From Haliotis rufescens (Eukaryota): a stretch of 64,000 nucleotides of DNA. The notes under the pieces are model-generated. The model saw only the letters and a list, made by a program, of their open reading frames with translations, was not told the DNA's origin and searched no databases. The stretch is from contig NW_025963802.1 of assembly GCF_023055435.1 (NCBI RefSeq), positions 8,060,001 to 8,124,000 of the forward strand, in the 5' to 3' direction. Both the position numbers and the translations under genes were made by a program. Each line of letters opens with the position of its first letter. Within the stretch, counting starts at the first letter, position 1. This document shows, piece after piece, positions 37,689 through 46,600 of this stretch.

Positions 37689-40600
37689 ATGGACGACAGG
37701 ATTGATCAGCGTTGTGTAATCTTACGAGGCTTCCCTCCAACCCCTAACCCCAATCAGGATATACATAGCCTTCTCAACAATCTCGCTGGGATACAGATTA
37801 AAAATATCTGTCAACTGCACACCCTGTCTACCACCAACACACCGGACTGGGTTGTACTGTGCCAGAATGTGGAAGGTCAGATTTGTTCTCAGATTTGTTA
37901 CGTGTAGGTCTTAGTTAAATGTAGCCAGACACCGTTGACCGAACAGGTTTGACAAATTTCACAAACATAGGTAATAGTTGACGCCTGTGCTTTCTCCCCG
38001 CCACAGTATGTTCGCTTATCAGCTGCTTACTCCTTGGGTAGATATCAAGTGGGGTCATACTGTGGTCGTCGCTTTTTTACACACGTCATACTATGTATCG
38101 GGCATAGTTGGTTGGTTGGTTTGTTGTTGAACGCCGCACTCAGCAATATATTCCAGCTATATGACGGCGGTCTGTAAATAATCAAGTATGGACCAGACAA
38201 TCCAGTGATTGATATCATGAGCATCTATCCACGCAATTGGGATCAATGACATGCATCAACCAAGTCAGCGAGCCTGACCACCCGATCCCGTTAGTCGGGC
38301 ATAGTGTAAAGTAAGGAATGGATTTTAGAAAGGAGTTTGGATTTGAATACTGGAATGGAATTTGGAGGGAGGGAGGGGGAGAAAATAAAATATGAAAATA
38401 TAACAAAACGCGGCGCAGACTATATTAATAAAATAAATAAACTTTAGCACTAAATTAATTTGCCGAGATGAAATACTGTAAAAGGTAAATTCGGTTAGGT
38501 TAACTAATGTTTTTAAACATTCTCACATAAAAGTGTTGTGTGAACGTATCTCTTAACATTCAAATGTTAAAATTGTTGTGTGGTTTATGTGGGCGTTTCT
38601 GCGCAATAAAAGTCATGATTTTGTAATTGAGTTGACTCGTCCATAACAACCTCTGTAACACGAGATGACACGCCAGAAGTATTAGTCCTGCATCATGGCT
38701 GTGGAATGATATCCATGCTTTCCGTAAAAAGTGACTATGCTTGTCGTAAGCGGCGAGATTTCCCGCATATGCTCCCAATTTTCATGTCTATTATCTGTAC
38801 CTTTGCTCCCAACAGCGATTGTCATATATCTCTCAATTTTGGAAGCGATCGTTCGGCCATGGCGTTTATCTCCGTTGCTCAGCTACATCTACGAGGTGCA
38901 ACTCACTTGACCATCGCTATCGCGTGGGAAATACCGGAATTTGAACACTCGTGTCGTAAACAGAAAACACAGGCGCATATCTGAGTTCAGAAAAGTCATA
39001 AGTGCCCTAGGGTCATATCACGTCACGAGACAACACTATACTGTTTCCGTCATCCGGACGGCATTGGTCACGTCATTCGACATTCGTCACTACTCGCCCC
39101 TTTCCGTGACCTACAAAAAGACTCGTCCCCCTATCGATGAATGTTATGTGCGAAAATACGACAAACCAATCAGAATGCGCGTATGATTTCAAGTTCTTTG
39201 TCAAAGAATCCCTCAGAAATAATATTTGAAACCAAAGACACAGTTAAATGTGTTCAAACATACTGTGTAATTCCGCATGTCCTGATCTGCACTAAATTGC
39301 ATCTGAAATATATATACTATACGGGGAAATATGTGTGAACCATTACACAACGAGTTGACAACTGTTTTAGGTATGCCCGTTTGCGCTAAGACGGAACCCG
39401 ATCGCAAAAATGGCCACGAGAGGGGCACGAGTCGCTATTCGGCTTGTCCCGGAATAACACGAGTTGGTCACGAATGGTCATTCGAATCTTATTCACTACT
39501 CGCCCCTTTCCGTAACATGTTTGTCCCGGAATAACACGATTTGGTCACGAATGTTATTGTGACGTGAGGTCGGAATGACGTGACACTATAAACGACGTCA
39601 TAGCTGAAAATTGTGTCGTCATTCGACAAATTGTGGTTCCGCTGCTGTTGCGACTTTCTGTCCTTATTGACCTTTTTCACACTTCGGTACTTCCGGTTTG
39701 AAAGCGAGGCTTGGAGAGCATCGCTGCTTATGCAGGTAGTGTCAACACACAGGAAGTAATGGCTCACTGTTCGGTCCCATTCTGTACGAGCGATCGGAGA
39801 AAAGCAGTTTCTTCGGAATTGTCTTTTTCCAATTTTCCTAAAGACAAGCATCTCAGGAGGAAATGGATCGCAGCCATACGTCGAGATGTGAGCAACTCCT
39901 TCCAGGTAAGCAGACTGTCTGTAGTGGTACATGTGTCGAATCACGAAAAATGTTTATCGCCAGTTCACAAGAAGTCCGACTAATTTGTTGCAAACAATGA
40001 TACCACAAAATTATATTTCACTAAAAAATGACAAGAACATCGTGTTCTACATTATTCTAGGTAAAATAATAATTGTTTACATGTAATTTCAAAATTTACT
40101 TCAATATTTCGAGCCATTCGTTACCGATGAGCTCTTGACAACTTCATCACACGATCAGTGAATGGGTTGACATAAACAGACGGCAAACCTAATGTTATGT
40201 AAAAAATGTATTATTTATTTAAATGTTGATAATCTGGGGAAAGATTTACTTGAATGCAATGCCAGTAAGTAACACTGACACAATAGTCGACCTTATACTT
40301 GAGAAATAGTTATGTAATAAATATTTGTGGTTTGGGCCCTAGGCCTATAGATCTATATTGACTAAGCATGTCTGTCTCTATGGCTGCCTGAAAAAAAATG
40401 TAAATATTATTTTGATTAAAGAATACTACCGGTTAATGAAATGTTATGGTTATGGTCGTTTTGCTATCCTGCAAGTCAGGTTTATTTTCAGCAATCCTTG
40501 TACTGAAAATGTTCATACATTAAGGTAATATACAGGTAACTTCTACCTTATGTATGCTACTTTTAACATTTTATGGCCATAGATTTTGTAATAATGGTTA

Positions 40601-43600
40601 TATACATATATGTTTTTTTACAGCTTCACTATTTTGAATAATAGAAACTTAATAACATTGTTAAATATGTTTATTGATGTTAATTTTTTTTGTTTCAGAT
40701 TGGTCGCAATATTATTTTGTATGCTCTAACCACTTCAAGCAATGTGAAATTAAAAGAGGTCTGGGAGGGCACAAAAAGAGGCTTGTTCCAGGAGCTGTTC
40801 CATGTATTTTTAGATGGAACAGTGCCAACAAGAGTAAACCAACCAACAAGGTCCAGGACAGAAGGTATTGATTTGACTATCTCTTATTATCATATCAATT
40901 ATTACATATAATATACAGTTCACTAAAATAGTTGTAATCATAATTTGTCATGACATTAATATTTTATTTAATCATTCATTTCTATTCCAGTGCATGTACT
41001 GTACAGTGTGTGACACTGTAAATGTATTATGATTATATTAATGTGTAAATATATTATTATTATAATAATGGCAGTATTGCTCCCAGACAGGTGCGCGGAA
41101 GCTATGTCCAATTTTTTAAAAGTACTGATTTAACTTCGAAATTTTACTGCATTCGCCATCTTTGTTTATTTGACTTGACTATTGTCATTGACTTATTACA
41201 TTTCTTTGTGTGAGTGTTGTCCAAAATGCACCCAATTGCTTAAAATGCAATCAAAAGTATAAAATATTTATGTGAACCCCCCAAAAGTTTTCCTCTTTTT
41301 GAGGGAAAACCTGCACACATCCCTGATGATATAATTTATGGTACCAAAATTACTATTCTAGGATATGCTTATTTACGAGGGAATATGAAATGTTCCGTGA
41401 CTTACACTTTTCAGGTTGGATAGCATGGACTGTGTACCAACAATGCCTACACCAGCTGACACTGCAGATCTGGCTTCGACTACGGCCAGTGACCCGACCC
41501 AAACGTCTACTCCCCACCTAACAGCAGATCATGATTACCATGAGAAACAACATGCCACAACTGAAGAAAAATTAGCTTCTGCACATGCAGAGATAAAACG
41601 CTTACAAAATTGTGTAAATGTTCAGTCTGCAAAATTATTTTCTATAAGGCGTTTCGCTACCAATCCTATGGACATCAATTTTTATACAGGTTTTGCTGAT
41701 TTCAATGAGCTAGATCATTTTTTTCAGTGGCTCTATCCTACTGCTTCAAAGATGCAAACCTGGACACAGTTTCAGAGAGGCACTGATGTTGACAAACTAC
41801 ACTGTGGATTTCCATGTTCTTTGTCATTGTTTGACCAATTATTTGTGTTTCTCATTAGAGTAAGACAAGGTTACCCTGAAACACACTTGGCACATCTGTT
41901 TAATGTCATTATTTCAACTATTTGTAGAATAACTATTACATGGGCCAATTATCTGTATTTTTTGCTTGGATGTGTATGCATTTGGCCCTCTAGAGAAATG
42001 ATAAATGAAAGAATGCCACCAGAATTTAAATGTTCTTATCCTGCAACACGGGTTATTGTTGACTGTACTGAATTGAAATTTCAAACGCCAACCTCTAGGG
42101 TTGTCAATTCAGAAATGTTTTCGCATTATAAAACCCACACCACTATGAAAGCATTGATTGGTATTGCTCCCCATGGGCCAATTACTTTTATCAGTTCCCT
42201 TTATGAAGGATGTATTTCTGATAAGGAAATAACCAAACAGAGTGGTCTCTTGTCATTGTTAGAGGTAGGCGATGGAGTTATGGCTGACAAAGGGTTTTTG
42301 ATTGATGATCTTCTTCACTCTACTGGTGCTCACTTGATTATCCCCCCCTTCCTCTCAAAATCAAATGATTATCAGTTTACTAGAAAGGATGTAGAAAACA
42401 CACAGGAAATATCCAGACTACGTATACATGTGGAGAGAGCTATCAGAAGAGTGAAGGAATACCATATTTTTGATGGCATAATTCCATTAACCATTGTAGG
42501 ATCTGTAAATCAAATTTGGACTGTTTGCTGTCTATTATCAAATTTCAGGGGTGATGCAAAGAGAAAACTTATGAAACATAACATGGCTAATGACTTTGGA
42601 CCATTACTTGAACCATGTCATCATGGTGTGTCATCTTGATAAATACTCATTAAACAGAAATGTGATAATTGTTTACTGGTACATTACTTCAATATGGTAT
42701 ATTATGCAATCAGTTTTGCAAGTTCTTGTGTCATAGTTGAATGGCATGGTAATGGGAGAGTGGAAACATCTTTATTTCCTTGTATTACTAATACATTCAT
42801 GCTGAAACAGTGCAACTAAAGTTTTCAAAACTGAAGTATGTCAATACCATAACAATTTGATCATTCATGAATATGTGTGTACATATCTTACCATGGTTAC
42901 ATGTCTAACACATCAATTGTCAATGTCTCATGTCAGAGAAGTAAAGAAATTCATCCTTCATGAAACACATGAATTACAATGTCACTTGGCTGATGTATGA
43001 ATCACATCATTACCCGATTACTAATGTAAAACTTCATTACCCATAAAAATAGACATTTACGGGTTGATATGTCAGTAGTCTGTCTGGTTTCCAACCGTAC
43101 AAGCTACTTGTCAAATTACTTTCCATTCATTACATCAGTCAACTTGCCCCTTACTGATAATATTGTTTAGATTTTACCAAGGATGTAATTTATGAAATAG
43201 TTGAAGTAAAACAGATCCAACCTGGTTTTCATTTCATTGCAAAATTCTTCATTGAAATATATTCTCTCCAAGTGGTAATCATCTTTGCACCAAACAAAGA
43301 AATCGACCTACCTGGCCCCAGAGAGTAACATTTGCCCCATTACTTGATGATAATGCTGGAATGTTTCTTTGAGCTTGTATGTACCTTGAGATGTTAACTT
43401 AAGGTAGTTGATATTTGATATGGATTGTGCAGTGGAACATTTGATTTCTAGCAAACCCCAAGGGTCACTCTCAGACGGGTCATATACCCGCCTGTCTGGT
43501 GAAGTGGCTAGATATGGACATGTATGGTTAATGACAATTCCACAAGCATGGACATTAAGCTTCTGCAGCCTTGAATATGCCTCAGCAGCAGAGTCCTCAT

Positions 43601-46600
43601 TCTCCATGCCATACTTCATAGCCTCAGTTTGTCTTTTGGATTTCAGTAGAGAGTCACACAAATGTTCAAAATTATCTTGTCTGGTATGCACAAATTTAAA
43701 GTTACTTGAAGATAGGCGATGTGCCTTAAGTTCCAACCACTTCTTTTGCTCACATTGATCTTGTGTTTCCTGCTCGTATAAAGCACTCTGTGTTGATGAA
43801 ACTGACAGTCCATCGAGAAATGTTTGTTGGTTTGATGTAAGTGGGCCATTTAGTTTGCTTTTAATATCAGGCGTTACAAAAGGTGGGGGAAAGGGGTGTG
43901 AATGGTTTATGATATGACTTTTGTTTATGTTTGATATATGAGGCTGTTGAAGTGAAATGGTTGAACCTTTGGGAACTTGACCAAACGCAGAAAGTACAAG
44001 AACTATATCATTCATATTCGGAATGATTGATGAGAACTGATTAGCCTTAGGATTTTGTCCACAAATGTTTTTTAGAGTGGAAGAAAATTCATTATGGTTG
44101 ATGTCTTTGGGCAAGGGATTGTATAGAGTAGACCTCAAACCATCAAGGCATCTCTTTTTTAAAGGGACAGGTTTCGCATTGGAAGATGATGAGTGAGTAA
44201 GTGTAGGAGAAGCAGAGGAAGTGTTAGTAGAGGCAGCAGATGTAGTTGAGGCAGCAGATGTAGTAGAGGCAGCAGATGAAGTAGGGGCAGTAGAAGAGGT
44301 AGTATCTGTTGATGACTTAGATGTAACAGATCCACTGGCAGGTGTTTTTATTTTTTGAACAGTGATTTGGTCTACCTTTTTGGCAAAAAGGCCTTTACTT
44401 CTTTGTGGAACGTGCCATGTCTGTGGCAGCGATGTTTTTGACAATGCAGGTGGCACTGTTTTTAAGTCAAGGGATTGATAGTGTTGTAACAAATACAGTA
44501 AACCAATCACGTGATTACATTTGCCCTGGCCAGATTCACAATTACATGAAGTCTGCTCAATGAGAGTTGAATCGGTTGTATTGATCCAGATCTGAAAAAT
44601 ATCACTGGTAGTCTATTGTTATTATTGTTTTATGTGGTAATATCTGCTCAGTGTAATAGCACTTTTTTCTTATGAGGATTAATTGGCCTTGTCCAATTAT
44701 AACCATGACTTGAAAATAATTATGCAGGGAACCCAGTTATCTTTTCTAAGCCTTGAGCATACTAAAGGTTTCTTCACTAAATTGATTGTTCTTCAGACTA
44801 TTGATTCAAGGTGTGGGTTTTCAATAAATGAGAATTTTAATTATCTTTCCATCAAAAAGTACTTTATTTTCACAGCCACAATTGTTTTAAATGTATCTTA
44901 ACGAGAAAATATGAAACAATTTATTGAGTACAAAAACACAATTTCCTTTTGGTTTTATTCACCTTCATGTGATAAGGGGTTTCATTCTTTTTTATTGACT
45001 TGAAGTTTCGAGCTCTGCAAACTGCTCCATCAGGTTGAGGAGATACTATAATCATAAAAGTAATTGAATATCCTGCCTGTTATAATCATGATAATATCAA
45101 TGTATATAATTGATTTAGAACAGGTCTGTAAAATAAACCCTTGTATACAGTTTATATCATTCTTTGTTGTATTTAATTTGCCTGCATGTGTTTACTTTTA
45201 GTCTGACTCATGTTACCATAAAATGGTGAGTTATTACACATTTACTTCTTTGGATTTATGTGAATGTTTATTGGTCACACAGCAGATCATATGGACACAG
45301 TCATATTACTCAAATGTGGAGGGCAATAGAACATTATCTGAGCTCCCTGGTAATGTTTAACACTGAACATGAATGGTACACTATGTACAGTGAAAAACAA
45401 AATTGATGGAAAACTGTGAAACGAATCTTTACTTAAGGTGAGTTGCTGCAGGTTCTTAGGCTTATGATGATAAAGGGACTTTTTCACAAGTTCAACACGT
45501 TTTCTTTGAGGTTACAACAAATGTGAGTAGAAATTTATGTTTTGATAAAATATGGTATCTGCTTCAGCCTAACAATAGTTATGTGACATATGAGAAATTC
45601 ATACAAATCATACAGTGATCAACGCAGCAATATATATTTTTTTATCTTTAAATTTCAGTTTTACACATACTGTTATATTACTCATTTCATGTTAAAAACA
45701 ACACCCAATATTTTTTTTATGATTTTTCATTGCTACTACAGTAGGAAGCTAACACGTTTTTTTGTTTTGGAAAATATTTATACTTCTGGTGGAATGTAAA
45801 CAATGAAAAAAATCCGATTATTCATTTCCAAAGCTGTTCTTATTTGGACTCATATCAATAAGAAAACAAATCGAAACAACTTCACAGCCAAATTAAAGTG
45901 TTGTTTATTGTTTACTAAACAATGTGATGTAATGATTATCACATCAACAATACTAGGTGTCACATGTATTATAAAAACCGCAAGATGTGTGTTTTTGGAG
46001 GACTTTGATAAGATAATATTTAACGGAAAATTCACTTCCGGGTTGCCGACACAACCAAGCCCCTACCTTCAACATCGAATATGTATCCCTCGCAAAAATT
46101 GCCATAGGCTCTTTTTAATACTTTTCTGGGGACTTTTGCAATTTGGTTTACCCAAGTTTTAACAAAACCGGGTCTTATGACCGGGACACAGTTTAAATTT
46201 TTGGTCCACACAGTCTTCGCGCTCAAATTGGTGGAAGCCATTTCGATACTGATTCCTTGACACGGAAGCACCGAATGCTCTCCAAGCCTCGTTTTCGATC
46301 CAAGATGGCGAAAGTGTGAAAAAGGTTAATAGGTAAACACTAAAATTCGTCTCTGTATGTAGACATCTTCTTCGGTAATAAAAAGAACATTATATTCGTG
46401 TTCATATTCGCTCTCGCTCGGGAAATACCGGAATTTAGACATATGTCGTAGACATAGTATGACATGAACACTCATATAATATCCTCTATATATGTCCCCA
46501 CACAAAACACAGGTGCTGTGCCGGAGGGACATATATGTCCTACACAAAAGTCAAGTTACACGGTGCGGGCCTTACACTAATCGATGTTACTGCCCTCCTA

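Follow-up and report, generated by a model that had tools for sequence, protein, structure and literature searches.

Bipartite ends of an ISL2EU transposon in Haliotis rufescens: an inner box at a set distance from both termini as a likely transposase docking site

ISL2EU transposons form a group within the PHIS superfamily that occupies animal hosts and combines a THAP-HTH-DDE transposase with a YqaJ exonuclease and an AT target-site duplication (PMC4482050, PMC9179366). The accessible text of the first of these sources, including rows of Table S2, gives terminal repeats of 6-259 bp without an inner box or promoter, reports that the repeats usually begin with GG and that the target is usually A-AT-T, and describes the role of the exonuclease gene as unknown (PMC4482050), while a statement in the 2022 paper holds that no proof of ISL2EU activity was known (PMC9179366). 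Inner terminal sites have been described in other transposons. For example, the Drosophila P element carries a terminal repeat, a spacer of 9 or 21 bp and an inner site bound by the THAP domain (PMC7776569), and THAP also binds an inner site in Galileo (PMC3688188). Maize MuDR contains two convergent genes, and both of its terminal repeats hold a transposase site together with promoters (PMC3440606, PMC10401008). Similarly, RAG-like transposons have a convergent gene pair, and the vertebrate RAG signal is bipartite with a set spacer, although invertebrate RAG-like forms reportedly depend chiefly on their terminal 15-17 bp (PMC7204232).

The window analysed here (64,000 nucleotides of contig NW_025963802.1) contains, at 39668-46328, one 6,661-bp ISL2EU transposon bounded by an imperfect inverted repeat with AT on either side, in which a plus-strand THAP-HTH-DDE transposase gene converges on a minus-strand SWIM-YqaJ exonuclease gene (Table 1). 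Pfam matches on the plus strand were to THAP (E 3.8e-9), HTH_Tnp_4 (1.2e-11) and DDE_Tnp_4 (2e-38), and those on the minus strand to YqaJ (3e-14) and, weakly, SWIM (0.013). The element shares the transposase domains, the YqaJ gene and the AT duplication with the ISL2EU group. AT flanks 11/11 complete copies, and an empty-site joint in RNA contigs (39665 to 46329) retains a single AT; TA as the duplicated dinucleotide was ruled out by the empty-site joints and AAT left flanks. In contrast to the usual ISL2EU pattern, the family begins with TG rather than GG, and its target is mostly T-AT-A rather than A-AT-T (flank TAT in 75/84 distinct ends). Both features are variation within the group, the TG start because other families in the same genome begin with AG, TC, GG or AA.

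Table 1 Features of the transposon, in positions of the window.
Feature	Position	Strand	Evidence
Left AT target-site duplication	39666..39667	.	AT in 11/11 complete copies; empty-site joint
Left outer terminal repeat, 17 bp	39668..39684	+	End comparison
Left spacer, 15 bp, ETS-like ACTTCCGG at 39689-39696	39685..39699	+	Motif scan
Left 22-bp inner box (core AAAGCGAGGCT, 39701-39711), a likely site for the transposase	39700..39721	+	Gene-less family shares to 39720
GTGTCAA, left end; outside shared end, weak support	39739..39745	+	p about 0.09
Transposase exon 1, N-terminal THAP	39759..39905	+	Pfam THAP E 3.8e-9; RNA contigs break at 39905
Transposase exon 2, remainder of THAP; frameshifted near 40714 in window copy	40699..40864	+	RNA contigs, sister copies
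Transposase exon 3 (HTH_Tnp_4, DDE_Tnp_4), with an approximate end	41415..42560	+	Pfam; GT-AG joint 40862/41413 in 4/4 runs
SWIM-YqaJ exonuclease main exon	43167..44591	-	Pfam, ORF
Exonuclease exon 1, predicted, ATG at 46241	46067..46241	-	Prediction; RNA contigs show no splice
GTGTCAA, right end; weakly supported	46257..46263	-	p about 0.09
Right 22-bp inner box (core AAAACGAGGCT), a likely site for the transposase	46275..46296	-	Gene-less family shares to 46275
Right spacer, 15 bp, YY1-like CGCCATCTTG at 46301-46310	46297..46311	-	Motif scan
Right outer terminal repeat, 17 bp	46312..46328	-	End comparison
Right AT target-site duplication	46329..46330	.	11/11 complete copies; empty-site joint

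The window copy is not intact: loss of 1 bp near 40714 has put THAP out of frame by comparison with six sister copies (five open, one broken elsewhere), 14 bases are missing at 42550 relative to the RNA contigs, and the exonuclease main exon holds an in-frame TAG at 43308-43310, the frame running on to 43167. The exonuclease gene also contains an 18-bp coding tandem repeat (window 44207-44314) that has grown to more than 1.5 kb in another copy (L070:2250-3900). The sequence into which the element inserted (39000-39667 and 46331-46500 of the window) is an abundant repeat that is well represented in RNA contigs, and one gene-less copy (L014) lies in that same repeat at nearly the same site. A 161-bp miniature copy is composed of the right 101 and left 65 bases (L043, G000:C583:57972166-57972326).

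Comparison of the two ends revealed an outer repeat at +1-17 from each terminus that is alike at 16/17 positions, a spacer at +18-32 that is alike at only 5/15, and a box at +33-54 that is alike at 21/22, a level of match reached by 0/1000 shuffles. The left spacer carries ACTTCCGG at +22, which we take to be ETS-like, and the right spacer carries CGCCATCTTG at +19, presumably a YY1-like motif; the start codons follow at +92 and +88, respectively. As the box lies at an equal offset at both ends, it is the inner half of one bipartite imperfect inverted repeat of ~54 bp. The original prediction had described mirror-image ends in which both genes start some 90 bp inside the terminus behind a common box, and all of the motifs that it listed are present in their places. 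The common 22-bp box was borne out, but the mirror is this bipartite end signal and not a 90-bp leader. GTGTCAA, which had been counted as part of the mirror, sits at unequal offsets (+72 and +66) and on its own is within chance (p about 0.09), and TGTCAA occurs in 6/18 family ends against 0.6 expected, albeit as a motif picked after looking. ATGGCT has likewise to be dropped from the mirror as an ordinary start context, with ATGG found at 12/18 listed start codons. No exact fit was found between the box and the THAP consensus sites, which we take to be TxxGGGx(A/T) and TxxGGCA.

The box had been proposed to be conserved while the spacer diverged, and this applies between the two ends but not among copies, where each version of the spacer is kept equally well. 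Across 13 left and 11 right ends of autonomous copies, mismatches numbered 6/273 and 6/231 in the box (the right box was scored in copy comparisons as +34-54, one base short, with no mismatch at +33), 4/195 and 2/176 in the spacer, and 19/390 and 15/330 in the next 30 bases inward. Gene-less copies were also compared, 39 being picked by their interior; anchors were present for 35 left and 38 right ends, of which 2 and 1 were dropped as having lost the end, leaving 33 left and 37 right ends for scoring. These had 7/1190 mismatches in the outer repeat, 10/1087 in the spacer, 9/1470 in the box and 157/8853 in the inner region, the last figure counting subfamily variants many times. Among copies, the whole end block is conserved: the box is better kept than its inner flank but does not stand out from the spacer, and a selection test within the family on the 39 gene-less copies contained too few changes to separate the two.

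How much of each end travels was apparent from a search of the element's own genome, in which about a dozen copies of the autonomous type appeared alongside many matches ending at the box edge. A 4.0-kb gene-less family, with no ORF of note in its interior, has bases 1-53 (98%) and the last 54 bases (100% over 52 aligned) in common with the autonomous element, and this holds in 5/5 aligned gene-less copies and 5/5 shorter derivatives. As the gene-less copies share only these 53/54 bp, the travelling unit is therefore the outer repeat, spacer and box, without the GTGTCAA spacing or the ATG. The 53/54 cut-off represents a single founding event with two breakpoints; a further derivative (L153) retains 55 bp at the right, one autonomous copy (L071) has no left box, and two single derivatives of family I end at +40-44, before the left box. 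Exact end patterns occurred 221 times in the genome versus 0 in the control. The 3' half of the box occurred 332 times versus 19 in the control, and 66 of its first 100 places fell in inward-facing pairs less than 10 kb apart (1.8-6.9 kb), so this half is element-specific. Truncated matches to family B, considered as minimal derivatives, proved to be a sister family, and no derivatives of family E were found in the genome. The gene-less family (L061:100-4137, G000:C2) has about 150-200 copies, its interior being unrelated to the autonomous element and yielding 195 first-look candidates. A GT donor at its +153 matches a loose end of 100 bases present in two sets of RNA contigs, a hint that the left end may give rise to a spliced non-coding transcript.

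Other ISL2EU families in the genome were gathered through a transposase search, and nine were recovered with both ends. An inner box common to both ends was identified in 8/9 families (p 0.001 or less versus shuffles), the exception being family J, and in 9/9 the predicted start codon of each gene is 74-172 bp from its end. Family A, to which the window element belongs, forms one clade with families B and C (support 98/98; about 50% transposase identity), and the three have the core AAAACGAGGCT in common though the outer repeat of A differs (p 0.0005 for 4 end pairs of 162 tested). Four right ends unused in finding the copies were compared between B and its sister family B2, and were identical at 111/116 positions of the outer repeat (96%), 104/114 of the box (91%), 12/16 of the spacer (75%) and 406/568 of the coding sequence (72%).

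A scan of 54 metagenome loci (219 kb) returned the exact core AAA(A/G)CGAGGC 8 times against 0.6 expected. Five of these lie ahead of a THAP or exonuclease start at termini that were inferred from AT plus a shared repeat on single contigs (+33, +33, +34, +34 and +46), one is upstream of a THAP gene and two are elsewhere. Every carrier of a terminus core fell into one clade (95/94 support) of a 27-row tree, and relatives outside it have other boxes; clade member L254, with no end seen, was left unscored. The core is located at +33 or +34 at both ends of A and in L235, L237, L246 and L247, and at +44 to +46 at both ends of B and in C and L236, while its distance to the ATG ranges from 15 to 58 bp. 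The core is anchored to the tip, with two spacings about one helical turn apart. Given that kin share motifs by descent and that the metagenome termini are inferred from single contigs, its presence across the clade points to long-term constraint but not to which protein binds, and co-evolution does not follow.

These families also provided several observations in their own right. L235 and L236 belong to one metagenome element whose core is at +33 at the left end but +46 at the right (termini inferred), an asymmetry like that of the P element. Families G, H and J (L091, L093/L125, L128/L147) form one clade with a motif such as CCAGGTGGCGC, which we take to be CTCF-like, ~25-45 bp inside the ends. 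At the left end of family I (L130:1576-1740), ETS-, NRF1- and YY1-like motifs crowd around a box, CGAGGGACAAACATTGC, that has CGAGG in common with the window core and GACAAAC with family E. In family E (L082, L083, L141), exonuclease matches fall on both sides of the transposase DDE exon, so that its two genes interleave through each other's introns. Family D includes six head-to-tail copies at about 5.56-kb spacing (G000:C1:43410762-43439041).

Set against the described systems, the window element is like the P element in having a repeat, a spacer and a conserved inner site at a set distance, and in both cases about one turn separates the two spacings (9 and 21 bp in P; +33/34 and +44/46 in the window's clade). 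However, P has one gene, an 8-bp duplication and another DDE family, and the spacing in the window's family is symmetric; the 2-bp AT duplication and DDE_Tnp_4 domain place the element outside the P superfamily. Similarly, it resembles MuDR in its two convergent genes starting just inside the ends and in non-autonomous copies that keep the repeats around unrelated DNA. MuDR differs in its near-identical repeats of about 215 bp and its Mutator transposase without THAP, whereas the window element has a ~54-bp unit with end-specific spacers; lacking both a Mutator transposase and long near-identical repeats, it falls outside the Mutator superfamily. RAG-like transposons have its convergent gene layout, and the vertebrate RAG signal its two-part design with a set spacer, but they are set apart from it by a Transib-type enzyme and a 5-bp duplication.

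The ends also have features of promoters. In the window element they are CpG-rich (observed/expected about 1.0 versus 0-0.8 inside), and across 18 end-to-ATG segments, ETS-like motifs were found in 9 (0.5 expected from shuffles), YY1-like in 4 (0.3) and CTCF-like in 5 (0.06), with the caveat that these patterns were chosen after looking and that the two ends of a pair are not independent. YY1 and ETS motifs mark human promoters in ubiquitous use, according to the accessible part of a preprint (bioRxiv 10.1101/2023.06.27.546584), and by inference the same role may carry over to the host of the window element. The proposal that the two spacers hold different housekeeping-promoter motifs is supported for the right end by the nearest relatives L246 and L247, in which GCCATCTT or GCCATGTT recurs in the spacer and the YY1-like motif is kept at the same place. 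The ATG lies at +49 in L246 and +63 in B2, so an internal promoter would have to start in or before the box.

Transcript data consisted of contigs from four runs taken as RNA, and contigs cannot show start sites. The GT-AG joint of transposase intron 2 was present in 4/4 runs, and a contig of transposase exon 1 reached +24, inside the spacer, in 3/4, this position being a graph branch point common with the gene-less family and not a start. Transposase RNA includes the box, although read-through from the flanks gives the same picture. No spliced exonuclease joint was found in the contigs of 4/4 runs, and its introns were crossed unspliced in 3; as contigs drop rare forms, this does not imply that the gene is silent. 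In several runs, long unspliced contigs extend over window 42560-46330, starting in the transposase and covering all of the exonuclease gene as far as the right end, possibly as antisense read-through (the contigs are strand-blind). The original prediction of inward-facing promoters is therefore plausible on the CpG-rich ends, the motif enrichment, the ATG at +49 in a relative and the spliced transposase RNA into the spacer, but contigs cannot separate it from flank read-through; by analogy with MuDR, the ends likely double as inward promoters of both genes.

With promoters in both ends, the box could be a host transcription-factor site that is needed for this function, and that gene-less copies keep by accident of origin. 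The shared boxes of families D, E, F and G themselves contain ETS-, YY1- or CTCF-like motifs, and the 11-bp core occurs 1018 times in the genome against 297 and 212 in controls, with 19 of the first 30 matches outside ISL2EU ends and some of these promoter-like (L196, L208, L214). However, the background of this count is loose (Markov estimates 457-610; another control 788), leaving the core excess outside elements unproven. In addition, the box has an element-specific 3' half, the position of the core follows the terminus and not the ATG, and gene-less copies stop at the box edge at both ends. We regard this explanation as unlikely.

The gene-less 53/54-bp unit, the clade-wide core and the inner boxes in 8/9 families suggest that the box is likely the sequence-specific inner end site on which the transposase docks. 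This much of the original prediction of a transposase site gains from the gene-less copies, which keep exactly to the box edge at both ends, and from a core that is fixed relative to the terminus across a clade with differing outer repeats and spacers, even though box and spacer are kept equally well among copies. The autonomous copy without a left box (L071), the two family-I derivatives that end short of theirs, the host-type motifs in the boxes of families D, E, F and G and the matches to the core outside ISL2EU ends weigh against a transposase site. Each end would then be a ~54-bp two-part signal, the outer 17-bp repeat and the inner 22-bp box being held at a fixed distance. By analogy with P and Galileo, the transposase would dock most likely through its THAP domain, which may anchor the enzyme to the box, leaving the HTH and DDE parts to work at the tip. 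Two box spacings ~one helical turn apart would be expected if the box and the cut site must be in phase.

Alternatively, the box might be a transposition signal bound by the HTH domain of the transposase or by the exonuclease partner, in the manner of the Myb-like partner at Harbinger ends. Several exonuclease starts do resemble small DNA-binding modules, presumably SAP-like ones. The second protein of Harbinger is described as binding the ends (PMC9179366), but the known inner-site binder in P and Galileo is THAP (PMC7776569, PMC3688188) and the core is kept in a clade with widely differing exonuclease starts, making such a binder improbable. Finally, a functionless remnant of one end once copied onto the other is largely excluded: end-to-end homogenisation has been proposed for Mutator elements (PMC10401008) and the box is not conserved beyond the spacer within the family, but spacer and leader have diverged between the ends and the box has not, the core survives about 50% protein divergence and recurs in metagenome records, and between B and B2 the box has changed less than coding DNA.

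If the box is indeed the docking site of the transposase, the same short stretch would likely also serve the inward-facing gene as its promoter and leader, with host ETS- or YY1-type factors perhaps using the spacer. Because bound transposase would sit on the start region, it might also dampen both genes, a speculative suggestion that is geometrically plausible and that we hold only tentatively. P transposase represses its own promoter by covering the TATA box, and MuDR reportedly shows only limited autoregulation. Taken to its full extent, one helically phased THAP site, conserved across hosts, would act as a dual-use switch that licenses transposition and covers both start regions, so that a single protein sets the dose of transposase and exonuclease and the ETS/YY1-type spacers set their ratio; as a whole, this scheme is rather doubtful.

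The element is an ordinary ISL2EU member, and P and MuDR provide precedents for an inner transposase site and for promoters in both ends. No description of inner boxes in ISL2EU elements was found in the parts of the open literature consulted, although one may exist in Repbase Reports or subscription papers. What is added here is the core found across the clade, the spacing of that core and the unit of 53/54 bp. Because P and MuDR already follow this logic, the result is not a new principle but a precise and testable map of an unstudied group, in which a natural minimal end (53/54 bp), a conserved core of 10 bp and a rule for spacing supply a transposition assay with its substrate and first mutations.
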